A program made the position numbers and the translations under genes. From positions 12,630 through 76,629 of the forward strand of contig CALXWT010000001.1 of the NCBI GenBank assembly GCA_944392445.1: a DNA stretch of 64,000 nucleotides, in the 5' to 3' direction. Source of the stretch: an uncultured Clostridia bacterium. GTDB lineage: Bacteria > Bacillota > Clostridia > TANB77 > CAG-508. Positions 5,229 through 43,974 of this stretch are shown here, one piece after another. Under the pieces are notes generated by a model that saw only the letters and a program-made list of their open reading frames with translations, was not told where the DNA came from and did no database searches. Every line of letters starts with the position of its first letter. Positions within the stretch are counted from its first letter, which is position 1.

Positions 5229-5254
5229 GCAACAATAATGTTGCTTCTTTTTTT
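5229..5254 (+). terminator. weak intrinsic terminator after rplQ
   Basis: GCAACA-ATAA-TGTTGC stem-loop followed by TTCTTTTTTT. Confidence 0.45.
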
Positions 5255-5390
5255 GTCGGGTTTGGGGACAGGCTCTTTTCTGACAAACTTGTCTGGTTTG
5301 GGGACAGGCTCTTTTCCGACAAACTTGTCGGGTTTGGGGACAGGTCTATCTGGGACATACATGTCATAGTGAGGAACAGGTTGGAGGAAC
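5253..5390 (-). repeat. REP array, 36-bp period, 3 good copies plus 1 degenerate (reverse orientation)
   Basis: TTGTCGGGTTTGGGGACAGGCTCTTTTC(T/C)GACAAAC units start at 5253, 5289 and 5325. A degenerate copy lies on the gene-proximal side. Confidence 0.9.
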
Positions 5391-5532: not shown

Positions 5533-5889
5533 ATGCTTAATTTTATATTAAATGAAATATTATGGACACTTGCACTTTATGGCCTTTTTGAAATTATTAA
5601 AAATATTATATATATTTGTACATATACAAATTTAAAATCAGATGGAATCTATATAATAATAGCAGCTAAAAATCAGGAAAATAAAATAGAAGGATTTTTG
5701 CGTACAATACTCTTTAGGATAATGTATGGTAAAGAAGATTGTGTGAAAGACGTGATTGTAACAGACTTGGACTCTACTGATGATACTATGAAAATTTTAA
5801 ACAAACTTAGTAAAGACTATGATGAGATAAAAGTTGTAAATTGGAAAGAATGCAAAGAAGTAATTGATAACATAAAAGAAGCTAATTAA
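5533..5889 (+). CDS. hypothetical membrane-anchored protein with weak GT-A (family 2 glycosyltransferase N-half)-like signature
   Basis: 118 aa, RBS GGAGG, N-terminal hydrophobic segment. IIIAAKNQENKIE...VIVTDLDSTDDT resembles the GT2 nucleotide-binding half. Function not established. Confidence 0.4.
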   Translation: MLNFILNEILWTLALYGLFEIIKNIIYICTYTNLKSDGIYIIIAAKNQENKIEGFLRTILFRIMYGKEDCVKDVIVTDLDSTDDTMKILNKLSKDYDEIKVVNWKECKEVIDNIKEAN

Positions 5890-5967: not shown

Positions 5968-6103
5968 CCGGCTTGTCCCTAAAAATGACACATATGTCTC
6001 AAATAGACCTGTCCCCAAACCCGACAAGTTTGTCGGAAAAGAGCCTGTCCCCAAACCCGACAAGTTTGTCGGAAAAGAGCCTGTCCCTAAACCCGACAAA
6101 ACT
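5968..6103 (+). repeat. REP array, 36-bp period, 1 degenerate plus ~2.7 good copies (forward orientation)
   Basis: CCTGTCCCCAAACCCGACAAGTTTGTCGGAAAAGAG units start at 6008, 6044 and 6080. This is the mirror image of array 5253-5390. Confidence 0.9.
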
Positions 6104-6125: not shown

Positions 6126-8542
6126 TTGGAATTACAAGGAGAAGTTATAGAAATAATATATAAAAACGATTTAAATAGTTATTGCATTGCTGCGTTAAAG
6201 TTGGATAAAAATTCTATTATGCAGAACAAAAAGAAAAACAGCAATAAATATGATGGCAACCAAATAGAATTTAAATATACTAACAATGTAGATAATGATG
6301 ATTATACAAATGAAATAATAGATAATATAGATGAGGAAATTACTATAGTAGGGTATCTACCATTTGTAAATATTGGAGATACTCTTAAAGCTATGGGAAA
6401 ATTTGTAGAACACCAAGAGTATGGTCTTCAATTTAAGGTAGATACTTTTGAAAAGATGATGCCACAAACCACTAAAGCTTTAGAACGCTATTTGGCAAAT
6501 TGTGGAATTAAAGGTGTTGGTCCTGCTACTGCAAGAAATATTGTCGAAACTTTTGGGGAAGACACATTAAATATCTTTAAGTTTGAACCAGCTAAATTGG
6601 CTCAGATTAAAGGAATAACCAAAGATAGAGCTATAGAAATAGCAAATACTTTTATAGAAAACTGGGAAGTTTGGCAACTTGTTGGCTTTTTAGACAAGTT
6701 TGGTATAGGACCACAAAATGCAGAAAAGATTTATAAAGCGCTTGGCATAAATGCAATTGATGAGATAGAGAGCAATCCATACATTTTAGTGGATTTGGTA
6801 AATAAAGTTAATTTTGAGCAAATTGATAAGATGGCACTTAATTTAGGTGTTGAATATAATAATGAGAAGAGGGTTAGAAGTGGTATTAAACATGCACTAA
6901 TACTTATGACATATAATGGGCATTGTTGTACTAGATATGAAGGGCTAATAGATTTTGTAAAGAAACTACTTGGCGTAAGTGAAAATGATATTGAAGATGT
7001 AATTATTAATATGAAAGCTAAAGAAGATATTGTACTAGAAGAAAGAGATGGAGAAGAGTGGGTATATTTATACCAATACTATGAGGCAGAAGCAAATGTA
7101 GCAAGACGTTTAATTGAATTAGATGAATATAAAAATATAAAAAAAATAGATAGATTTGAGAAAGAACTAGAATTATTTGAAGAAAAATCTAGTATAGAAC
7201 TATCTGAAAAGCAAATTGAAGCGATAAGTGCAATAAATGATAATAATGTTTGTGTTATAACAGGACGGACCTGGTACTGGTAAAACCACAATTATAAAAA
7301 CAATAATAGATATATTTAAACATAATGAAATGAAGCCCGTGCTTTGTGCTCCAACGGGCAGAGCTGCTAAGAAGATGACAGAAGCAACAGGAAATGAGGC
7401 TAGTACCCTACATAGATTGCTAGAGATAGGAAAGATTTCTGATGAAAACCAAGGCATAAATCCGGATTTTTCTGTTGCACCTATTGACGGAGATATAGTA
7501 ATTGTAGATGAAATGTCGATGGTGGATTTGTTCTTAATGAATTATTTATGCAAAGCTCTATATAAAGGTACTAAACTGGTTTTAGTAGGAGATATTGATC
7601 AGCTACCATCGGTTGGCCCAGGAAATGTTCTAAAAGATATTATTGAATCTGATAAAATAACTACAATTAGACTTAACAAAATTTTTAGACAAGCAGCTAA
7701 AAGCAAAATTATAGTAAATGCACATAGAGTAAACGAAGGTAAAGGATTTATAATAAAAGAGGAGATAGACGATTTGGAAAATTCTAACAAAGAGGAAATA
7801 GAGAGAAAAAATAGCAATGATGCCGAAATTCAAAAAGAAAGTAAAAGTGGAGGATTTTTAGAGGACTTTTTCTTTGTGAATGAAACCAAAAAAGACAAAA
7901 TTTTATATAATGTTCTGTCTTTAAGTGGAGAAAGGCTGAAAAGCTATGGCGATTATGATTTTTTTAAAAACATACAAATTATAACACCAACCAAAAAAGG
8001 TGACTTAGGAACAAAGGAGTTAAATAAGCTAATACAGAATACTGTAAATCCAGCTTCTGATACTAAAAAAGAGAAAAAGTTTGGAGATAATCTTTTTAGA
8101 GAAGGAGATAGGATAATGCAAGTAAAAAACAATTATGATATCTATTGGGAGCGTAAAGAACCAATTTTTGAAAGTGGAAGTGGTGTGTTCAATGGTGAGT
8201 TTGGAACAATAGAAAAAATAGATGATTTTAATAAGCAAGTGAAAATTAAGTTTGATGATGATAAACAGGTCTGGTATCAATATACTGATTTAGAGCAAAT
8301 AGAACATGCATATGCTATAACTGTTCATAAAGCACAACGGTAGTGAGTTTGATGTGGTAATAATGCCTATTTCGCAAACTGCACCAATGCTACTTACAAG
8401 AAACTTGCTTTATACTGGCATGACTAGAGCAAAGAAACTACTAATTATTATAGGCAGTAAAAATATAATAGACTTTATGATAAATAATAATGACAATAAA
8501 AAAAGAAATACTGGATTGGCTTTTAAGATGATAAATATATAG
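6126..8542 (+). CDS. recD2: RecD2-type ATP-dependent helicase (SF1), split into 3 ORFs by two single-C (+1) shifts
   Basis: Probable TTG start at 6126 after AAGAGG; the track ORF upstream is translated REP array. Shows helix-hairpin-helix region, Walker A, DEMSMVD and motif VI. The frame is restored by skipping C7266 and C8338, giving ~804 aa. Confidence 0.85.
7266..7268 (+). other. in-frame CGG at ORF break; +1 continuation restores Walker A glycine
   Basis: ATA ACA GGA CGG ACC TGG.. reaches a stop after 4 more codons. Skipping the C gives GGA CCT GGT ACT GGT AAA ACC ACA = ITG-GPGTGKTT. Confidence 0.7.
8338..8340 (+). other. in-frame CGG at ORF break; +1 continuation restores helicase motif VI glycine
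   Basis: CAT AAA GCA CAA CGG TAG. Skipping the C gives GGT AGT GAG TTT GAT GTG = HKAQ-GSEFDV. Confidence 0.7.
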
Positions 8543-11327: not shown

Positions 11328-11435
11328 GTGGACAAAAGGGACACTCCTTTTTGTCCACACTTTAAAATTATACATAATTTACTATTTATGATAGCATAGT
11401 AACTGTGGACAAAAAAGAGTGTCTCTTTTGTTCAC
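11328..11435. repeat. inverted doublet of GTGGACAAA...TTTGTCCAC hairpins (REPIN-like)
   Basis: GTGGACAAAAGGGACACTCCTTTTTGTCCAC (11328-11358) and GTGGACAAAAAAGAGTGTCTCTTTTGTTCAC (11405-11435). The second is the reverse-complement form, and a 46-bp AT-rich spacer separates them. Confidence 0.85.
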
Positions 11436-11510
11436 GATAAAAAAACTTGAATAAAATTTTCCTCTTTTGTAATAATAAGAATAGACATAAAATTTAAAAG
11501 GAGGAAAATT

Positions 11511-13942: not shown

Positions 13943-15259
13943 ATGAATAAGAAAACAGTAAGAGATGTTGATGTTAAAGGAAAAAAAGTGCTAGTAAGAT
14001 GTGATTTTAATGTACCTTTAAAAGATGGAAAAATAACAGATAACACAAGAATAACAGCTGCACTTCCAACAATAGAATATTTAAGAGATAATGGAGCAAA
14101 AGTTATACTATGCTCACACTTAGGAAGACCAAAGGGAGAAGTTAAAGAAGAATATTCTTTAAAACCAGTAGCAGAAGAATTAAAAGATTTACTAGATACA
14201 GATGTTAAATTTGCAAGTGATGTTACAGGAGAAAGTGCAAAAAGTGTTACCAATAGCCTAACTGATGGTGATGTTGCCCTATTAGAAAACGTTAGATTTG
14301 ACCCAAGAGAAGAACAAAATGATGATACAATGGCGATGGAACTTGCAAATCTTTCAGATGGAATCTATGTAAATGATGCTTTTGGAGCAGCACATAGAGC
14401 ACATAGCTCTACAGAGGGTGTAGCTCATCATGTAGATGAAGCAGTAGAAGGATTTTTAATGGAAAAAGAAGTTAAGTTCTTAAATGGAACTCTAGAGGAT
14501 CCAGAAAAACCATTTGTAGCAATACTAGGTGGAGCAAAAGTATCTGATAAAATAGGAGTTATAGAAAACTTACTTGATAAAGTAGACGAAATCTTAATTG
14601 GTGGAGGAATGGCATATACATTCTTAAAAGCACAAGGACATGAAATTGGAGATTCATTATGCGAAGAAGATAAAATAGAAGAAGCTAAAAAAATAATGAA
14701 TAAGGCAAAACTTGCAGGTGTAAAAATAGTTCTTCCAGAAGATACTGTAGTTGCACCAAAACAACCAGAGCCAGAAGAAGAATTAGACAAAAAAGCAAAA
14801 CAAAAAGCATTTATAAGCTTCTTAGAAACAGCACCAGATAAAGTTGTAAATTCAAACGAAATTCCAGCTGGATGGCAAGGATGCGATATTGGCCCAAAAA
14901 CAGCTAGAACATTTGCAAACGAATTACAAGATAAAAAGACAATACTTTGGAACGGACCACTTGGAATATGCGAAGTAGAAAAGTTTAGTATTGGAACAGA
15001 AAGAGTTGCAGAAGCAATAGCAGCTACAAAATCTATATCTATAGTAGGTGGAGGAGACTCTGTAGCAGCAATTAAAAAGTTACATTTAGAGGATAACTTT
15101 TCTCATATTTCAACAGGTGGAGGAGCTTCACTTGAACTATTAGAGGGTAAGGTATTACCAGGAATTGCATGCTTAACTGATAAACCAGAAAAAGAAAAAA
15201 CAGATGGTAATGATATGGACGTGGACAAAGGGGACACTCCTATTTGTCCACAAAGATAG
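13943..15259 (+). CDS. pgk: phosphoglycerate kinase (with internal insertion and ~25-30 aa C-terminal extension)
   Basis: Conserved PGK motifs (VLVRCDFNVP, GGGDS, STGGGASLE). It is 438 aa against the usual ~395-400. The tail DVDKGDTPICPQR is encoded by the hairpin repeat at 15221. Confidence 0.95.
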   Translation: MNKKTVRDVDVKGKKVLVRCDFNVPLKDGKITDNTRITAALPTIEYLRDNGAKVILCSHLGRPKGEVKEEYSLKPVAEELKDLLDTDVKFASDVTGESAKSVTNSLTDGDVALLENVRFDPREEQNDDTMAMELANLSDGIYVNDAFGAAHRAHSSTEGVAHHVDEAVEGFLMEKEVKFLNGTLEDPEKPFVAILGGAKVSDKIGVIENLLDKVDEILIGGGMAYTFLKAQGHEIGDSLCEEDKIEEAKKIMNKAKLAGVKIVLPEDTVVAPKQPEPEEELDKKAKQKAFISFLETAPDKVVNSNEIPAGWQGCDIGPKTARTFANELQDKKTILWNGPLGICEVEKFSIGTERVAEAIAATKSISIVGGGDSVAAIKKLHLEDNFSHISTGGGASLELLEGKVLPGIACLTDKPEKEKTDGNDMDVDKGDTPICPQR

Positions 15260-15325
15260 AAAATTTATATAAATAATATAATGGTATTAAAGCGTGGACA
15301 AAAGGCAGTAGTCCCCTTTGTCCAC
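15221..15325. repeat. inverted doublet of GTGGACAAA...TTTGTCCAC hairpins
   Basis: GTGGACAAAGGGGACACTCCTATTTGTCCAC (15221-15251) and GTGGACAAAAGGCAGTAGTCCCCTTTGTCCAC (15294-15325, inverted form), with a 42-bp AT spacer. Confidence 0.85.
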
Positions 15326-15346
15326 GTTTTGTTAGGAGAGAATTTT

Positions 15347-20214: not shown

Positions 20215-20245
20215 GTGGACAAAAGGGACACTCCTATTTGTCCAC
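20215..20245. repeat. single GTGGACAAA...TTTGTCCAC hairpin
   Basis: GTGGACAAAAGGGACACTCCTATTTGTCCAC, lying between eno and the tRNA. Confidence 0.85.
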
Positions 20246-29059: not shown

Positions 29060-29090
29060 GTGGACAAAAGGAATTATGCCTTTTGTCTAC
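29060..29090. repeat. diverged GTGGACAAA...TTTGTCTAC hairpin
   Basis: GTGGACAAAAGGAATTATGCCTTTTGTCTAC followed by TTTT. May also act as a terminator. Confidence 0.7.
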
Positions 29091-34936: not shown

Positions 34937-35018
34937 AAATAGCTTTTTAAAAAAATCAGAACTTTAATGATTAGTAAGAAAATGCTATAGCAAAAATAAA
35001 ATGAGGAGAGATAAACAG

Positions 35019-36956
35019 ATGAAAAACAAGTATTTTAATGATGCAATAATTGGAGGAAAAGATATAACTGCAAGCTTCACATATCATGGTGAAATGCTAA
35101 GGTTAATGTACAACACACCAGACTTTAAGCAATTTTTAGACTTTTTCCATACAGGAGTCAAAATAAATGACTCTTGCATAATTTATTTACATCAAGACCA
35201 AAACAATAGGTATAATCAGTATTATACAGAAGATACAAATATATTAAACACCGAAATAGAAAACACATATTTTAATTTGCAAATTAAGCAAATAGATTTT
35301 GTATCTATGAAAAATAGTGTTTTAATAAAAAGATATATATTTAAAAATAATAACACAATAGATTTGAATGTAAACTTTTTAGTACACTCAAAACTATTAT
35401 CAAATCCAAACAATATGGTAGGTTCGAAAATAGAAAATAATGTGCTAATGCAGTATAGCCATAATAACACATTGTGTATGTTTTCAAAGAAGAATATAAA
35501 TGCACATCAATTAAACGATACAGAAAATAATATAGGAAGTGGTGTAATACACGATAAAGATTATATAGGAATGAGTTCAGATTCTAGCATCAATTATGAA
35601 CTTGGAGTTATCAAACCAGGGGAAACGAAAGAATTAGATATATATTTATATATTCTTGAAAATGATAAAGTTAATGCAGAAGAAATGTGGAAGAATATAG
35701 AAAATATTAGAAAGCAAGATGTGGAAGCAGAACAAAGTTCAGTGCAAAAATATTGGAAAAAATATGTAAAAGAACATATCAATATAGAACTAAAAGAAGA
35801 AAATAGTGAGTATAATAAAAAATTTAATAAGGTATATAAAAGGAGCATATTGATATTTCCACTGCTAACAAACAAAGAAACAGGAGGAGTTGCAGCAGCA
35901 GTAGAAGTGGACGAGAATCTAACCCAATGTGGTAGATATGGATATTGTTGGCCACGTGATGCAGTATTTATAACAAGAGCATTTGACAAATTAAAAATGA
36001 ATAAAGAAACAGAAAAATTCTACAAAGTATTTTGCAAAAACACACAAAGCAGAAATGGAATGTGGGAGCAAAGATTCTACACAGACGGACGCTTAGCACC
36101 TTGCTGGGGATATCAAATAGACGAAACAGCAGGAGTAGTATATGGGGTATATGAACACTATAAAGTTACAAAAGACAAAAAATTCTTAAAAGATATGCTA
36201 AAAATGTGTGAGAATGCAGTAAAATTCTTGTGCATATATATGGACAACATTTTAGGATTACACGATGACAGCGATGTAGTAAAAAATGAAATAGAAAAAA
36301 CATATCACACAGAAGACAGAAACAAGCTACCAGTAAGTTATGATTTGTGGGAAATGCATGAAGGAGTACACTTATATTCACTTGCAAGCATTTACTCAGC
36401 ATTTAATGCAATTCTAGAAATGTATGAAATATTAAAACCAGAATACGAAGAAAAAAATAGATTAAAACTAGAAAGCATAAATAAATTAAGCAAAAAGATA
36501 GACTTTTATAAAAAAGAAATGGACAAATACATAAAAGCAAATATGTATAATGAAAACACAAAAACATTGAAGAGAAACACAAATGACGAAGTAACAGACA
36601 TAAGTGTATTGGGAACAGTAGTACCATTTAAAATGTACAAGCCAAACGAAAAGAAAATAATTAACACAATAGAAAAAATAAACATGAGACTAAGAACATA
36701 TACGGGAGGCTACCTAAGATTTGAAGGAGACCACTATAGAGGAGGAAATAGCCCTTGGGCAATTTCTACATTATGGATGGCAATGTACTACGAAGAAGTA
36801 GGAGAAAATAAAAAAGCAAAAGAATGCATAGACTTCATAGTAAACAGCAGTAACCAACACGGCTTACTTGGAGAACAAATAGACAACAGCACAATGCAAC
36901 CAAATTGGGTAATAGGCCTTGCATGGTCACACGCAATGTTCATTTTGGCACTTTAG
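35019..36956 (+). CDS. glycoside hydrolase family 15 (glucoamylase-like) protein
   Basis: YCWPRDAVF, YDLWEMHEG, LLGEQID, WSHAMF match the (alpha/alpha)6 GH15 catalytic domain. ATG 35019 follows GAGGAGAG. Confidence 0.75.
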   Translation: MKNKYFNDAIIGGKDITASFTYHGEMLRLMYNTPDFKQFLDFFHTGVKINDSCIIYLHQDQNNRYNQYYTEDTNILNTEIENTYFNLQIKQIDFVSMKNSVLIKRYIFKNNNTIDLNVNFLVHSKLLSNPNNMVGSKIENNVLMQYSHNNTLCMFSKKNINAHQLNDTENNIGSGVIHDKDYIGMSSDSSINYELGVIKPGETKELDIYLYILENDKVNAEEMWKNIENIRKQDVEAEQSSVQKYWKKYVKEHINIELKEENSEYNKKFNKVYKRSILIFPLLTNKETGGVAAAVEVDENLTQCGRYGYCWPRDAVFITRAFDKLKMNKETEKFYKVFCKNTQSRNGMWEQRFYTDGRLAPCWGYQIDETAGVVYGVYEHYKVTKDKKFLKDMLKMCENAVKFLCIYMDNILGLHDDSDVVKNEIEKTYHTEDRNKLPVSYDLWEMHEGVHLYSLASIYSAFNAILEMYEILKPEYEEKNRLKLESINKLSKKIDFYKKEMDKYIKANMYNENTKTLKRNTNDEVTDISVLGTVVPFKMYKPNEKKIINTIEKINMRLRTYTGGYLRFEGDHYRGGNSPWAISTLWMAMYYEEVGENKKAKECIDFIVNSSNQHGLLGEQIDNSTMQPNWVIGLAWSHAMFILAL

Positions 36957-36957
36957 T

Positions 36958-36995
36958 TTGTCGGGTTTGGGGACAGGCTCTTTTCTGACACAGTT
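36958..36995 (-). repeat. single REP copy (reverse orientation), 2 nt after the GH15 stop
   Basis: TTGTCGGGTTTGGGGACAGGCTCTTTTCTGACA. Confidence 0.85.
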
Positions 36996-37064
36996 GCCAA
37001 ATACTGAAGAGAATTTCTTTCTAAATAGTGCTTAAAAATAAGATGAAAAACAAGGTGACATAAA

Positions 37065-37081
37065 TTGTAAAAATTTTGTAA
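37065..37081. promoter_or_regulatory. TTGTAA pair at 11-bp spacing
   Basis: TTGTAA at 37065 and 37076. Confidence 0.35.
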
Positions 37082-37119
37082 AAAGTATAGCATATTTATA
37101 AAAAATGTGCTATACTTTT
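37081..37119. other. perfect 12-bp-stem hairpin upstream of rayT
   Basis: AAAAGTATAGCA ... TGCTATACTTTT. Confidence 0.5.
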
Positions 37120-37209
37120 TAATGTGACAAAAATTTAAGTAGAAAAATATGATATGGGGGTTAAGTATTTTTTACTAATAAAAATAAAATATTGAAAGGA
37201 GAAAATATT

Positions 37210-38007
37210 ATGCCTCGCATATCCAGAGTAAATTTAAAGGAAATAACAAATATGCATCATATTATTCTAAGAGGTGTTAATAAGCAAGATATCTTTTTGG
37301 ATAATAGTGATAGAGAAAAATTTATCAAAACAATAATTGAAACAAAAGAAAAATTTGTGTTTGAATTATACTTATATGTATTAATGAATAATCATGTTCA
37401 TGTAGTAATATATGATGAAAATAAAGAAATATCGAATATTATGCATAAATTATGTACTACGTATGCTTTATATTTTAATAAAAAATATGGTAGAGTGGGT
37501 CACTTATTTCAAAATAGATATAAAAGTATATGTATTATTGACGAAAAGCATTTATTTAATTTAATAAGATATATTCATAGCAATCCAGAGAAAGAAGGAA
37601 TAGGTAGTATAACTGAATATAAATGGAGCAGTTATGGAGATTATATCAATAGAAATAAAAATAAGATAACAGATACTGAGTTTATTCTTGGACTATTTGA
37701 AAGCAAACAAGAAGATGCTTTAAGCAGTTTTATAAAATTTAATGCGAAAGAAGACAAAAGAGGATATTTAGAAACAAAACTTATATGCGAAAATAAACTT
37801 AGTGATGATGAAGCTATTATCTATATAAAAGAAATTTTAGGAATAGATAATATTCTATCAATAACCAATTACAATAAAGAAATAAGAGATTCATATATCT
37901 ATAAAATTTCTAAGATTAGAGGAATTTATAAAAATCAAATAGCAAGAATTTTAGGAATAAGCGAAAGAAGTGTAGAAAGAATTATAGAAAAAAATAAATC
38001 AAAATAA
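37210..38007 (+). CDS. rayT: REP-associated tyrosine transposase-like protein (HUH/Y1, IS200-like fold) with C-terminal HTH
   Basis: HUH motif NNHVHVVI and catalytic Tyr context HLFQNRYKS...IRYIHSNP. C-terminal IARILGISERSVERIIEK HTH. ATG 37210 lies 8 nt after AAGGAG. Confidence 0.8.
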   Translation: MPRISRVNLKEITNMHHIILRGVNKQDIFLDNSDREKFIKTIIETKEKFVFELYLYVLMNNHVHVVIYDENKEISNIMHKLCTTYALYFNKKYGRVGHLFQNRYKSICIIDEKHLFNLIRYIHSNPEKEGIGSITEYKWSSYGDYINRNKNKITDTEFILGLFESKQEDALSSFIKFNAKEDKRGYLETKLICENKLSDDEAIIYIKEILGIDNILSITNYNKEIRDSYIYKISKIRGIYKNQIARILGISERSVERIIEKNKSK

Positions 38008-38070
38008 AATTCTTATTCAGAATGTTAGTTGTTGAAAGAATAAAAAAGCGTAAACAAAATTATAAGTAAG

Positions 38071-38127
38071 CCTGTCCCCGAACCCGACAGGTATGTCGGA
38101 AAAGAGCCTGTCCCCAAACCCGACAAA
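38071..38127 (+). repeat. REP array, ~1.6 copies (forward orientation), abutting the radA RBS
   Basis: CCTGTCCCC at 38071 and 38107 (36-bp period). The array ends ...CCCGACAAAAGGAGG. Confidence 0.9.
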
Positions 38128-38135
38128 AGGAGGAA

Positions 38136-39509
38136 ATGATGGCAAAAGCAAAGACAATTTTTGTGTGTAGTAATTGTGGATATGAATCTGCAAAATGGCT
38201 AGGGAAGTGTCCAGCTTGTAATGAGTGGAATAGTTTTTATGAGGAAAAGGTTGCAAATACATCAAGTACATCTGGTGGAAAAAGTAGTGTAAGTAAAGAG
38301 AAAAGTATGCCTCGCAAGTTAAAAGAGGTAGAAGGAATAGAAATGGCAAGAACAAGCACAGGAATAGGTGAGTTAGATAGAGTCTTGGGAGGAGGATTGG
38401 TAAAAGGCTCACTTGTGCTAGTAGGAGGAGAGCCAGGAATTGGTAAGTCTACTTTAATTTTGCAACTCTGTGATAAAGTCAAAGGTGAAGGAAAAGTTTT
38501 ATATGTTTCTGGAGAGGAATCGGCAGAACAAGTAAAGATTAGAGCTGATAGACTAAACATTAATAATGATGATTTATTATTTTTAGGTGAAACAAATATT
38601 GATAATATTCAAGAAACAATAATGTCTGTAAATCCGAAACTTGTTATTATAGATTCTATTCAAACAATGTATTCAGAAGAGATTACTTCAGCTGCAGGTA
38701 CTGTTAGCCAGGTTAGAGAAATTACTTCAAGAATTATGAGAATGTGCAAGGATAATGGAATTACTACAATAATAATCGGTCATGTTACAAAGGATGGAAA
38801 TATAGCAGGACCTAGAGTATTGGAGCACATGGTAGACACTGTTTTATATTTAGAAGGAGAAAGATATTTCTCTTATAGGATATTAAGGAGTGTAAAAAAT
38901 AGATTTGGCTCAACAAACGAAGTAGGAATGTTTGAAATGAAAAATGAAGGTATGGTAGAAATAATAAATCCATCATCAATTCTTATTTCAGAGAGAAACG
39001 ACAATCCTGCTGGCTCGGTAATTGTAGCTAGTATGGAGGGAACAAGGCCACTTTTGGTTGAACTACAAGCACTAACAACGCCAAGTGTATTCGGAATACC
39101 AAAAAGAACTGCAAATGGAATAGATTTTAACAGATTAGCAGTTTTAATTGCTGTTGTAGAAAAAAGAGCAGGAATAAATTTAGGTGGACAAGACGTATAC
39201 TTAAATGTTGTAAGTGGAATAAAATTGGCAGAGCCTGCTGTAGACTTGGGCATTATTTTAGCATGTACATCTAGCTTTAAGAATATTAGTATACCACAAG
39301 ATGTAGTAGCAATAGGTGAAGTTGGTCTAACAGGAGAAGTACGTGCAGTAAACATGATAGAAAAAAGAATAAAAGAAGCAGAAAAGTTAGGATTTAAAAA
39401 ATGTATTATACCAGAAAGTAACAAAAAACTCTTGAAAGAAAACTATAAATTAGATATAATAGGTGTCAGAAATATAAATGAGGCAATAAAGGGATTGCAG
39501 TTAAGGTAA
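38136..39509 (+). CDS. radA: DNA repair protein RadA (Sms)
   Basis: Zinc finger CSNCGYESAKWLGKCPAC, Walker A GGEPGIGKST, KNRFG motif and Lon-like C-domain. The start may be the second ATG at 38139. Confidence 0.95.
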   Translation: MMAKAKTIFVCSNCGYESAKWLGKCPACNEWNSFYEEKVANTSSTSGGKSSVSKEKSMPRKLKEVEGIEMARTSTGIGELDRVLGGGLVKGSLVLVGGEPGIGKSTLILQLCDKVKGEGKVLYVSGEESAEQVKIRADRLNINNDDLLFLGETNIDNIQETIMSVNPKLVIIDSIQTMYSEEITSAAGTVSQVREITSRIMRMCKDNGITTIIIGHVTKDGNIAGPRVLEHMVDTVLYLEGERYFSYRILRSVKNRFGSTNEVGMFEMKNEGMVEIINPSSILISERNDNPAGSVIVASMEGTRPLLVELQALTTPSVFGIPKRTANGIDFNRLAVLIAVVEKRAGINLGGQDVYLNVVSGIKLAEPAVDLGIILACTSSFKNISIPQDVVAIGEVGLTGEVRAVNMIEKRIKEAEKLGFKKCIIPESNKKLLKENYKLDIIGVRNINEAIKGLQLR

Positions 39510-39620
39510 TAACTATAAAGATAAAACTTGTATAATACGTAGGCAAAAAGGCTTGTTAAAGACAAGTTTAGAGGAATTATAGGTTTGAAGAACAATCAAG
39601 GGAAAAAATAGAAAATCAAA

Positions 39621-39720
39621 GGGGAGCCTGTCCCCAAACCCGACAACAATGTCGGAAAAGAGCCTGTCCCCAAACCCGACAAATGTGTCGGAAAAGAGCC
39701 TGTCCCCAAACCTGACAAAA
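39621..39720 (+). repeat. REP array, ~2.7 copies (forward orientation), between radA and disA
   Basis: CCTGTCCCC at 39627, 39663 and 39699. The central 4 nt of each palindrome vary (CAAT, ATGT). Confidence 0.9.
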
Positions 39721-39734
39721 GGAGTGAAACGAGA

Positions 39735-40800
39735 GTGACAGAAGGAATTGAAGAAATTTTGAAATTGATAGCACCTGGTACACCAATAAGAAATGGATTG
39801 GAGAATATTTTAAATGCTAAGACAGGAGCTCTAATAGCAATCGCAGACAATGAAGAAGTTCTAAAATTAGTTGATCGGGGGATTTAAACTAGATGTAGAC
39901 TTTAGTCCAGCTAAATTATATGAACTTGCTAAGATGGATGGAGCTATTATATTGAGTTCTGACTTTAAGAAAATTTTATATGCTAATACGCAATTAATAC
40001 CTTCACCCGAAATTTCTACCACTGAGACTGGTACTAGGCATAGAACTGCAGAACGTACGGCAAAACAAACTGGCTCTTTAGTAATTAGTATATCGCAAAG
40101 AAGAGGTATAATTACTTTATTTAGAGAAAATGAAAGGTATGTGTTAAGAAATTCGGCAGATGTTATTTCAAAAGCTAATCAAGCTTTACAAATTGTAGAA
40201 AAATATAAGAAAGTATTTGATAATAAGATAAATATACTTAATGAATATGAATTTAATGATATTGTAACATTAGAAAATGTAATTACAGTAATACAAAGAG
40301 CAGAATTAGTTATGAAAATCGCAACTGAGGTTGAACGAGCGATAGATGAATTAGGCGAAGAGGGCAGATTATTAGAAATGCAACTAGATGAAACTGTTGG
40401 AGATTTAGAAAAAGAGGAACTTTTGATTATTAAAGACTATATTGCACCTGGTAAGAAAAGAAATGCAGAAAAAATTCTATTAGAACTTAAAAATATTGTG
40501 TATGAGAATCTTATAAAACCAGATAAAATAGCTAATTTATTAGGTTATGAGGATTTTGACAATTATGATGAAGTTGGTGTATACACCAGAGGTTATAGAA
40601 TATTAAATAAAATACCAAGAATGCCAAGCACTATAGTGGAAAACTTAGTAAAAACTTTTAAATCATTCCAACACATATTGGTTGCAGATATTCCAAAACT
40701 TGATGAAGTAGATGGAATAGGAGAAATTAGAGCAAGGACTATTAAGCAATCCTTAAAAAGAATGCAAGAACAATTTGTATTTGATAATTTAATAATGTAA
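39735..40800 (+). CDS. disA: DNA integrity scanning protein DisA (diadenylate cyclase), split by one single-C (+1) shift
   Basis: GTG 39735 follows [31 protein letters not shown]... continues after C39876 as [27 protein letters not shown]...[10 protein letters not shown]. About 354 aa once joined. Confidence 0.88.
39876..39878 (+). other. in-frame CGG at ORF break; +1 continuation restores conserved GG
   Basis: GTT GAT CGG GGG ATT TAA. Skipping the C gives GGG GGA TTT AAA CTA GAT = VD-GGFKLD. Confidence 0.7.
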
Positions 40801-42978: not shown

Positions 42979-43718
42979 ATGCGAAATATTAAGTTGGTTA
43001 TAGAATATGATGGTAAAGATTTTAATGGATGGCAAAAACAACCAAACAAATTAAATATACAAGGAGAAATAGAAAGAGCCATAGAAGCAATAACACATGA
43101 AAGGGTAGAACTCATTGCTTCTGGAAGAACTGATGCGGGAGTGCATGCACTTCGGACAAGTAGCTAATTTTAAAACTAATTCAAATATTGATATAGAAAA
43201 AATACCAATAGCAATAAATTCACAGGTAAAAAATTCTATAAGAATAAAATCTGCAAAAGAAGTAGACGAAAATTTTCATAGTAGATTTAATTGCAAAAAA
43301 AAGACATATAGATATGTTATAGATAATTCTAAATATGGAACAGCAATTTATAGAAACTTAGTGTATCATTTTCCAATAAAATTAGATGTAGAAGCAATGA
43401 AAAAAGCAGTAAAATATCTTGAAGGAGAACATGATTTTAAGGCATTTAAATCTAGTGGAACAAGTAGTAAAACTAGCATAAGAACCATATATTCTGCTAA
43501 CATAGTAAAAGAAGGAGATAACATAGGAATAGAATTAACAGGAAATGGATTTTTGTATAATATGGTAAGAATAATAGCAGGAACTTTGTTGGATGTGGGA
43601 TTACGGAAAAATAAAACCAGAGGAAATTCCTAACATAATAGAAAGCAAAGACAGAAAAAAAGCAGGAAAAACACTTCCACCACATGGTCTTATGCTACTA
43701 CATGTGGACTATGACTAG
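42979..43718 (+). CDS. truA: tRNA pseudouridine(38-40) synthase TruA, split by two single-C (+1) shifts
   Basis: [23 protein letters not shown], catalytic [24 protein letters not shown]. Skipping C43153 and C43604 gives 245 aa ending ...[11 protein letters not shown]. Confidence 0.88.
43153..43155 (+). other. in-frame CGG at ORF break; +1 continuation restores conserved Gly
   Basis: GCA CTT CGG ACA AGT AGC TAA. Skipping the C gives GGA CAA GTA GCT AAT TTT = GVHAL-GQVANF. Confidence 0.7.
43604..43606 (+). other. in-frame CGG at ORF break; +1 continuation restores conserved Gly
   Basis: GGA TTA CGG AAA AAT ... TAA. Skipping the C gives GGA AAA ATA AAA CCA GAG GAA = DVGL-GKIKPEE. Confidence 0.7.
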
Positions 43719-43974
43719 AACAATTGAGTTGTTAATTTTTATGAATTATTATATATTTTTTTATAAAAGAAAGAGTGTGTATTTTTTTTCTTTATATTGA
43801 AGTCTTAAGGTGGGGACCGACAAGTTTACAAACTGTAAAAACAAAACTTTAGTTTTGGCTTATACAGTTTGTACGCTGTTGGGGGACGTAAATATAAAGA
43901 AAAAAAATACACACTCTTTCTCTTACTAAAAGATAATTCATAAAAATTAATGTCTCAATTGTTCCAGTAACAAA
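43718..43974. repeat. ~257-bp palindrome with REP-like core, overlapping the truA stop codon
   Basis: About 80-bp arms (GAACAATTGAG...CTTTATATT / AATATAAAG...CTCAATTGTTC). The core contains GGGGACCGACAAGTTT and GTTTGTACGCTGTTGGGGGAC, which resemble REP segments. Confidence 0.85.

Follow-up and report, generated by a model that had tools for sequence, protein, structure and literature searches.

In this study, we examined a 64,000-nt stretch of DNA from an uncultured Clostridia bacterium (assembly GCA_944392445.1, contig CALXWT010000001.1, positions 12,630 to 76,629 of the forward strand). This whole stretch, hereafter the window, has a GC content of 30% and carries nearly all of its long open reading frames (ORFs) on the plus strand; it holds a gene for a Y1 (HUH) transposase-like protein at 37210-38007 and a family of 36-bp palindromic repeats, two copies of which bracket the gene. 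The gene and the repeats are best read as a domesticated Y1 (HUH) single-strand DNA nuclease with its cognate short-repeat family, putatively working in a REP-RAYT-like manner and belonging to the TIRYT type (TnpAY1 subclass 2.1), which bears a helix-turn-helix (HTH) domain; we put the probability of this reading at roughly two in three. An initial annotation had proposed a REP-RAYT system at this place, and its observation is confirmed because the Y1 gene, the 36-bp arrays and the inverted flanking copies were all recovered.

The Y1/HUH protein

The gene at the centre of the system is as follows.

37210-38007, plus strand: Y1/HUH nuclease gene with a C-terminal HTH, 265 aa, recognized from Pfam, NCBIfam, alignment, profile and AlphaFold2 (AF2)/Foldseek evidence

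The ORF matches Pfam Y1_Tnp (PF01797) with an E value of 2e-11, and the HUH motif named in the initial annotation was recovered as H62-V-H64. The catalytic tyrosine, which had been placed in FQNRYKS, was misassigned: that residue is mostly Phe in homologues, and the sequence alignment identifies the invariant tyrosine as Y121 (RYIHSNP), followed by N125. All four residues, H62, H64, Y121 and N125, are invariant in a 33-sequence homologue alignment and correspond to H59, H61, the catalytic Y115 and N119 of E. coli TnpA-REP, and the motif W139-S140-S141-Y142 (WSSY) is invariant or nearly so in the same 33 sequences. The C-terminal HTH that had been noticed earlier is real as well, with weak HTH_23 and HTH_28 matches at the C-terminal end and a helical and HTH region at about residues 150-265 that is helical with high confidence in the AF2 model; HTH_23 was matched in 11 of the 33 homologues and HTH_28 in 4 of them.

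The profile search that the initial annotation had suggested separates the protein from insertion sequence (IS) transposases: the NCBIfam RAYT model (REP_Tyr_transpos) gave the window protein 58 bits, under its equivalog cut-off of 80 bits, and the IS200 model only 14 bits against a cut-off of 55. Every homologue (33/33) was matched by the RAYT model, and 23/33 by the IS200 model at E<=0.01. A PDB search with the single Y1 sequence returned nothing relevant; with the family alignment profile, 4ER8 (E. coli TnpA-REP) emerged as the sole significant match (E 0.0035), with the HUH and YI.xNP motifs aligned. It was also the top Foldseek match (E 2.6e-5, template modelling (TM) score 0.71, target-normalised) of the AF2 model, which has a mean predicted local distance difference test (pLDDT) value of 89.6, and the IS608 and ISDra2 TnpA structures ranked lower. 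The residues that contact GTAG in E. coli TnpA-REP are WQ, and the window protein has FQ at that place. No second Y1 copy was found by tblastn within the window, in agreement with the single-copy claim made earlier, and there is no tnpB beside the gene, whose neighbours are a GH15-family gene and radA.

The 36-bp repeat

The repeat unit, CCTGTCCCCAAACCCGACA-NNNN-TGTCGGAAAAGAG, is 36 bp long and consists of a conserved core CCTGTCCCC (complement GGGGACAG), a hairpin CCGACA-N4-TGTCGG and an A-rich linker. The initial annotation was right about the palindrome and wrong about its extent: described as CCGACAA-NN-TTGTCGG, it has a true stem of 6 bp (CCGACA/TGTCGG) and a variable 4-nt loop. Folded as single-stranded DNA, the unit adopts this 6-bp hairpin at an energy of -5.5 kcal/mol (z -2.65). 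The 19-mer CCTGTCCCCAAACCCGACA has 12 copies in the window at <=3 mismatches, compared with 0 expected from shuffles, and the degenerate motif GGGG[AT][CG]A[CG] (GGGGWSAS) has 13 matches in the window, 12 of them inside the 36-bp repeat family. The members of the family in the window are listed below; A-type and B-type denote subtypes of the unit.

5251-5378, minus strand: array of 2.6 A-type units and an inner degenerate unit, past the rplQ terminator; left arm of a 128-nt inverted repeat
5974-6101, plus strand: array upstream of recD2, in which 2.6 A-type units come after an inner B-type unit (CTTGTCCCTAAAAATGACA-CATA-TGTCTCAAATAGA); this is the right-hand arm of the 128-nt inverted repeat
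36957-36996, minus strand: left inverted repeat of 1.1 unit (TTTGTCGGGTTTGGGGACAGGCTCTTTTCTGACA...), starting directly past the GH15 stop codon
38069-38128 (unit span 38071-38127), plus strand: right array of 1.6 units with loop GGTA; its end, ...CCCGACAAAAGGAGG, is the radA ribosome-binding site
39624-39720, plus strand: array of 2.7 units with loops ACAA and AATG, between radA and disA, ending at the disA ribosome-binding site
59776-59880: composite relative (GGGGACAGGTCTATTTG..., CCTGTCAC... and a GTGCCA/TGGCAC palindrome) upstream of pnp, representing a third unit subtype

The exact 36-bp head-to-tail arrays that had been reported at four sites hold up, with Tandem Repeats Finder calling period-36 arrays at 5253-5344, 6008-6099 and 39624-39720, and a 1.6-unit array standing at 38071-38127. 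The inverted bracketing of Y1 is equally clear (36957-36990 against 38094-38127, 97% complementary over 34 nt); as a trait peculiar to Y1 it does not stand, given that an unrelated 118-aa ORF at 5533-5889 is likewise enclosed by a 128-nt inverted repeat (91% complementary) made up of arrays 5251-5378 and 5974-6101. This cassette-like arrangement of inverted arrays around the ORF is kept in another species (locus L016). The ORF itself, between rplQ and recD2, weakly matches the N-terminal part of glycosyltransferase family 2.

Two degenerate relatives had also been proposed. The one at 59783 is genuine (59776-59880) and belongs to another subtype of the unit; two metagenome-assembled genomes (MAGs; loci L003 and L004) have an A-type terminal unit at the orthologous site. 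The one at 43811-43900 is not accepted as a relative, because its 16-nt resemblance comprises only GGGGACCGACAAGTTT and it folds as a separate long hairpin of its own within nested inverted repeats.

Alignment of 18 full units from the window and related MAG loci showed that the four loop positions are hypervariable (1.1-1.9 bits of entropy) and that every other position has <=0.6 bits, including positions 24-36, which were not used for locus selection. The arrays always end exactly at ...CCCGACA, and these ends abut a ribosome-binding site (radA, disA and recD2 in the window, other genes in MAGs) or, in inverted orientation, a stop codon or terminator (GH15, rplQ). They start at (A)GCCTGTCCCC, or have a second unit subtype, ...CCTGTCCCTAAxATGACA-N4-TGTCTCAAATAGA, before it. 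Several arrays finish with a 13-nt partial duplication, ...CCCGACA|CCCAAACCCGACA (L002 2641-2672, L006 3390-3420, L015 3581-3610 and L016 2151-2185), which may point to another recurrent breakpoint, a second one, between CCTGTC and CCCAAAC.

A CRISPR-like array was considered and rejected: the units abut with a 4-nt variable junction only, and there are neither spacers nor cas genes. Rfam at the gathering threshold found one tRNA only in the window, and thus no known RNA family at the repeats. The sequences upstream of radA do not appear to resemble LexA or CtsR operator boxes.

Inheritance and neighbourhood of the Y1 gene

The Y1 gene is inherited vertically, at a locus that stays fixed; it has one copy in the window and is not part of an IS. 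Its immediate surroundings are as follows.

35001-36956: GH15-family gene, upstream neighbour of Y1
37081-37119: perfect 12-bp inverted repeat AAAAGTATAGCA-N15-TGCTATACTTTT in the Y1 promoter region, with an extended -10-like TGCTATACT in each arm
38136-39509: radA, downstream neighbour of Y1, followed by disA

Genomic context was looked up for ten homologue clusters with 41-60% identity to the window Y1. In eight of them Y1 lies directly upstream of radA, with disA next in seven of those, and in eight it lies directly downstream of GH15; one cluster has the order MiaB-like gene - Y1 - radA - disA, one has GH15 - Y1 - GAPDH, and one has Y1 in a wholly different context. The gene context is identical in all twenty contigs that carry the window's own Y1 protein, and the synteny is kept in lineages whose RadA is only 71-94% identical. 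The claim of the initial annotation that this is not an IS is therefore well founded, being borne out by synteny across the ten clusters, a single copy in the window and no tnpB. A phage origin was rejected as well: viral contigs gave one 19-mer match and 10 tblastn relatives, and no long segment of the latter was more than 38% identical.

Between the window and L019, RadA is 93% and GH15 91% identical, and Y1 60%. The ratio of nonsynonymous to synonymous substitution rates (dN/dS) is 0.15-0.27 for Y1 compared with 0.03-0.05 for GH15 and radA, so that Y1 is under purifying selection yet evolves several-fold faster than its neighbours. The palindrome at 37081-37119 is conserved in homologue loci L019, L023, L026, L033 and L065, and is a candidate promoter with an autoregulatory operator, or a candidate pair of divergent promoters.

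Repeats beyond the window and covariation of the palindrome

Exact copies of the window 19-mer were found on at least 17 contigs from four related MAGs of uncultured Clostridia, in many cases with neighbours at 36-bp spacing, and a metagenome scan for the window repeat recovered 13 stretches. Inverted GGGAC/GTCCC-type motifs flank Y1 in the window lineage and in 9 of the 10 homologue clusters, in variants that include GGGGACAG, GGGGACAC, GGGGACG and GGGACAG; the exception, the non-syntenic cluster L067, has a different palindrome (GGGGAAAAAGGGGCC/GGCCCCTTTTTCCCC). Even relatives at 34-38% identity, one of them in 50%-GC DNA, have inverted GGGGACAGG/CCTGTCCCC or GGGGACG.../...CGTCCCC flanks.

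The palindrome next to the core changes by compensatory substitutions between lineages. It reads CCGACA/TGTCGG in the window, GCGACA/TGTCGC in L065, GTGACA/TGTCAC in L023 and L026, and TGGACA/TGTCCA in L030 and L037, giving four lineage-specific combinations of the outer pairs (CC/GG, GC/GC, GT/AC and TG/CA), and both outer pairs are complementary in 19 of 22 core-adjacent xxGACA-N3-5-TGTCxx sites. In each lineage, its own variant also turns up at other places in the locus. Inverted unit doublets are occasional only, found in MAG loci L006 and L015, and the arrays of the window are head-to-tail.

In other lineages the repeats also run into coding sequence: the GH15 3' ends of L026, L033 and L035 overlap units, and an array encodes an extra C-terminal tail of protein P0007 (L019 10792-10836). 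At L065 5800-5870 the array runs right up to the radA ATG, and an obvious ribosome-binding site is absent.

Array dynamics between strains

Comparison of strain contigs, which were fetched by their identical Y1 protein, shows that arrays change by whole units between strains, by gain and by loss. With near-identical flanks, the slot between GH15 and Y1 holds 1 or 2 units depending on the strain. The slot between radA and disA has six alleles among about 20 strain contigs, with loops ACAA|AATG, ACTA|AATG, GGCA|GGCA|AATG, ACTG, ACTA and ACAA. Pure 36-nt indels with no nearby single-nucleotide polymorphism were found in L042 and L045; L045 is a plain unit loss, and L072 is a duplication that copies the loop (GGCA|GGCA). 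The array between Y1 and radA does not vary among 8 strain contigs, and 5 strain contigs have identical rplQ/recD2 arrays, with the orthologous array in another species differing in unit number and subtype.

The arrays also coincide with the edges of recombination tracts. The window differs from L039 and L041 at about 5% of sites in a densely diverged tract at 38168-39683, covering radA and its downstream spacer, which was also compared with L044; the arrays at 38071-38127 and 39624-39720 form its bounds, and there are zero differences for more than 1 kb on either side in L039 and L041. Left tract boundaries are biased, because the contigs were chosen through an identical Y1 protein; the right edge, which falls inside the array at 39624-39720, is unbiased. 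Also between strains, a diverged patch at the 3' end of GH15 (35750-36933) ends at the array at 36958.

Relationship to known Y1/repeat systems

RAYT-like genes with terminal inverted repeats that share GGGG[AT][CG]A[CG] have been described as TIRYTs (TIRtrons), and some of their flanking repeats form moderately abundant families, as dimers or clusters (Di Nocera 2013, PMC3733652). TIRYTs have been equated with TnpAY1 subclass 2.1, which comprises long proteins with HTH_23, HTH_28 or DnaA_C tails and a serine motif and near whose genes no REP-like sequences were found (Quentin 2018, PMC6006769). Judged against these published descriptions, the window system fits TIRYT/subclass 2.1 in protein architecture and flank motif, and this appears to be the closest described kind. 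The likeness comprises a long Y1 protein (265 aa) with a C-terminal HTH_23/HTH_28-type domain, inverted flanks with GGGG[AT][CG]A[CG] (here GGGGACAG on both flanks, and no GTAG), and flanking repeats able to form moderately abundant families in dimers or clusters. The WSSY motif (139-142) after the catalytic tyrosine may correspond to the subclass 2.1 serine motif. On the other hand, the flanking repeat of the window has a covarying 6-bp hairpin, none having been reported near subclass 2.1 genes (PMC6006769), it is dispersed in head-to-tail arrays that have an exact 36-bp period and a hypervariable loop, and its host belongs to a low-GC clade of uncultured gut Clostridia, in which the gene has a deep history of vertical inheritance next to radA. 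The covarying hairpin, the exact arrays with a free loop, the population-level turnover of units and the deep vertical inheritance beside radA in gut Clostridia are additions to the TIRYT description.

With the canonical REP/REPIN-RAYT systems (REPtrons) of E. coli, Pseudomonas and Stenotrophomonas, including TnpA-REP (4ER8), the window system shares a single-copy, vertically inherited Y1/HUH gene that gives its best profile and fold match, a palindromic repeat that both brackets the gene and is dispersed in intergenic DNA, and the co-evolution of protein and repeat. It differs in that a GTAG/GTGG foot is present on neither strand of the unit, where the conserved flank is CTGTCCCC/GGGGACAG, in that the unit has no bulged long stem, in that units stand mostly in direct tandem rather than in the inverted doublets of REPINs and BIMEs, and in that the protein is 100 aa longer, has an HTH and carries FQ in place of the GTAG-contacting WQ of E. 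coli. The REP-RAYT label of the initial annotation thus stands for the single-copy non-IS Y1/HUH gene, the inverted flanks and the dispersed palindromic repeat, and fails for the missing GT[AG]G foot, the scarcity of inverted doublets and the extra HTH. The TnpA proteins of IS200/IS605 elements (IS608, ISDra2) share the HUH/Y1 fold and, presumably, the recognition of single-strand hairpins; the window gene differs from them in not being mobile as a unit, in its single copy, in having no tnpB, in its score below the IS200 cut-off and in its extra HTH. RAYT Group 1 also occurs in Clostridia, and its flanking 16-mers are modestly repeated, at about 12 per replicon (Bertels 2017, PMC5581495); compared by description, it resembles the window system in both respects and differs in that neither tandem arrays nor an HTH is described there (PMC5581495).

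Work on domesticated Y1 transposases and their cognate repeats has dealt almost exclusively with Proteobacteria that have GTAG-type REPs, and the window locus extends such systems to a new lineage and layout. For the large HTH-bearing subclass 2.1, the locus supplies a clear and tractable candidate substrate (the 36-bp unit with its covarying hairpin and GGGGACAG motif), a natural allelic series of arrays and a fast co-evolving protein, conserved over a deep gut Clostridia clade, so that recognition and cutting by subclass 2.1 proteins and the role of the HTH become testable with oligonucleotides and one purified protein. Of further interest are the short arrays on the ribosome-binding sites of DNA-repair genes, which coincide with recombination-tract edges.

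Putative mechanism and alternative explanations

By analogy with TnpA-REP and IS608 (PMC3479197, PMC8266576), we infer that the Y1 protein is the catalyst. The Y1 domain would probably bind the folded hairpin together with the CTGTCCCC core while the DNA is transiently single-stranded, and is predicted then to cut and rejoin at the hairpin/core, whereby units would be added, removed and occasionally seeded at new sites. The role of the HTH is probably to hold the enzyme on duplex DNA, or else to repress the enzyme's own promoter via the palindrome at 37081-37119. Protein and repeat putatively co-evolve quickly. The arrays take up the intergenic gaps as far as the ribosome-binding sites and stop codons and would therefore be transcribed; as such they may also affect mRNA.

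Several points weigh against a domesticated nuclease with its cognate repeat. The canonical GT[AG]G guide is absent from the unit, and the conservation of unit positions 1-19 is partly an artefact of choosing loci by the exact 19-mer. Tandem gain and loss of units can be explained by replication slippage or unequal recombination without a dedicated enzyme, and alleles L045 and L072 look exactly like products of these processes. In addition, little recent transposition is visible, because the array sites are orthologous between species and the rplQ/recD2 arrays are identical in five strains.

The most probable alternative is that the repeats are upheld only by host processes (slippage, unequal or homologous recombination, selection for a function in RNA or DNA) and that Y1 is a historical founder or an inactive passenger. 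Array sites that are orthologous across species and in part identical across strains would be expected in that case, alleles L045 and L072 are a plain whole-unit loss and a loop-copying duplication, and arrays, as conserved islands, could simply attract the endpoints of homologous recombination. A passenger, however, is at odds with the invariance of the HUH, Tyr and Asn residues in 33 homologues and with a Y1 dN/dS below 0.3; nor does host upkeep sit well with a palindrome and a protein that change together, with gene-flanking units that always match the dispersed ones, or with non-loop unit positions that are far more conserved than the adjoining spacer. We consider this explanation unlikely.

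A somewhat more doubtful proposal departs from classical REP transposition: the hairpin itself may be where the Y1-HTH enzyme acts, with a cut at GACA or immediately 3' of it (GACA|NN|NN) and the insertion or excision of whole 36-nt units, and the arrays would be products of site-specific single-strand unit insertion. This would explain the exact 36-bp period, the array ends at ...CCGACA and the free 4-nt junction, and likewise the 13-nt terminal partial duplications (CCCAAACCCGACA) and the allele ACTG as AC|AA + AA|TG. If it were true, arrays would also be preferred endpoints for the exchange of the genes they bracket, for example the radA tract between 38071-38127 and 39624-39720. Cleavage at the loop centre as a general rule was rejected and is retained only within the present proposal; it fits the allele ACTG and the L044 deletion, but is contradicted by the unit loss in L045 and the loop-copying duplication in L072.

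Slightly less probable again is that the Y1 protein acts mainly as an HTH DNA-binding regulator, with the arrays as operators or mRNA leader elements of radA, disA, recD2 and other genes. The plus-oriented arrays do stop exactly at the ribosome-binding sites of radA, disA and recD2, and at those of other genes in MAGs; the array of L065 abuts the radA ATG, the Y1-radA linkage survives where the upstream neighbours differ, and the palindrome in the Y1 promoter is conserved. However, about half of the arrays are oppositely oriented, just past stop codons, and the genes downstream of arrays are functionally unrelated, some looking by their reading frames like coaE, ftsE and a rimO/miaB-type gene. 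An invariant nuclease centre, moreover, is needless for a pure regulator, and published GGGGWSAS flanks sit in many unrelated contexts.

An ordinary IS200/IS605 insertion sequence, that is, an autonomous mobile tnpA with subterminal hairpins, has the Y1_Tnp fold and flanking hairpin-bearing repeats in common with the window locus, but is already contradicted and highly improbable in view of the 14-bit score against a cut-off of 55, the 265-aa protein with an HTH and no tnpB, the single copy in the window, the syntenic position in lineages with RadA 71-94% identical, and the identical repeats that also flank an unrelated ORF and stand alone elsewhere. The initial annotation had named two findings that would count against it, a multi-copy IS200/IS605-type gene with IS ends and a repeat not enriched elsewhere; the gene proved not to be of that type, and the repeat does recur elsewhere.

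A possible sister repeat family and other features of the window

A tentative sister family of repeats was identified in the window.

11328-11439 (11328-11358 and 11405-11439): hairpin GTGGACAAAAGG-GACACT-CCTTTTTGTCCAC in two inverted copies, DNA folding energy -11.2 kcal/mol

More copies lie at 15221-15251, 15294-15328, 20215-20245 and 29060-29090, at or just past gene ends, and the copy at 15221 is the sole GGGGWSAS match in the window outside the main 36-bp family. The build is that of the 36-bp unit, with a half-palindrome xxGACA, an A-run, a GGGACAC core, a T-run and TGTCxx, and the palindrome TGGACA/TGTCCA is that of the Y1-flanking repeats in L030 and L037. Kinship of the sister family with the 36-bp unit is tentatively suggested by this common build only.

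Two genes next to arrays are split. disA (39735-39887 and 39871-40800) is interrupted by a single inserted nucleotide, the C at 39876 (GTTGAT-C-GGGGGATTT), and is split in more than 20 contigs from different samples; the diverged L044 allele is without the C and encodes an intact DisA. recD2 (6126-7283 and 7330-8343) is split into two ORFs by an apparent 1-nt C insertion in the Walker A codons (ATAACAGGA-C-GGACCTGGTACTGGTAAAACC), and the same two-ORF split was found in four other strain contigs (L060-L063). The two frameshifts are alike in that a C is inserted ahead of a G run in a DNA-repair gene.

Elsewhere in the window, truA (43115-43633) is apparently truncated or fragmented, with three ORFs in L039. 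Directly downstream of it are 250-bp nested inverted repeats, with arms 43714-43749/43933-43968 and 43746-43804/43885-43943 around the long hairpin at 43805-43890. An intergenic, near-perfect 80-bp tandem duplication was found at 2233-2409 (2.2 copies, 96% matches). Finally, three adjacent small genes (51274-51362, 51976-52064 and 53052-53140) begin alike, their conserved 5' ends coding for MENASKAL(I/L)(M/I)A..., and may thus be a paralogous cluster, and their N-termini are presumably pilin-like or pseudopilin-like.

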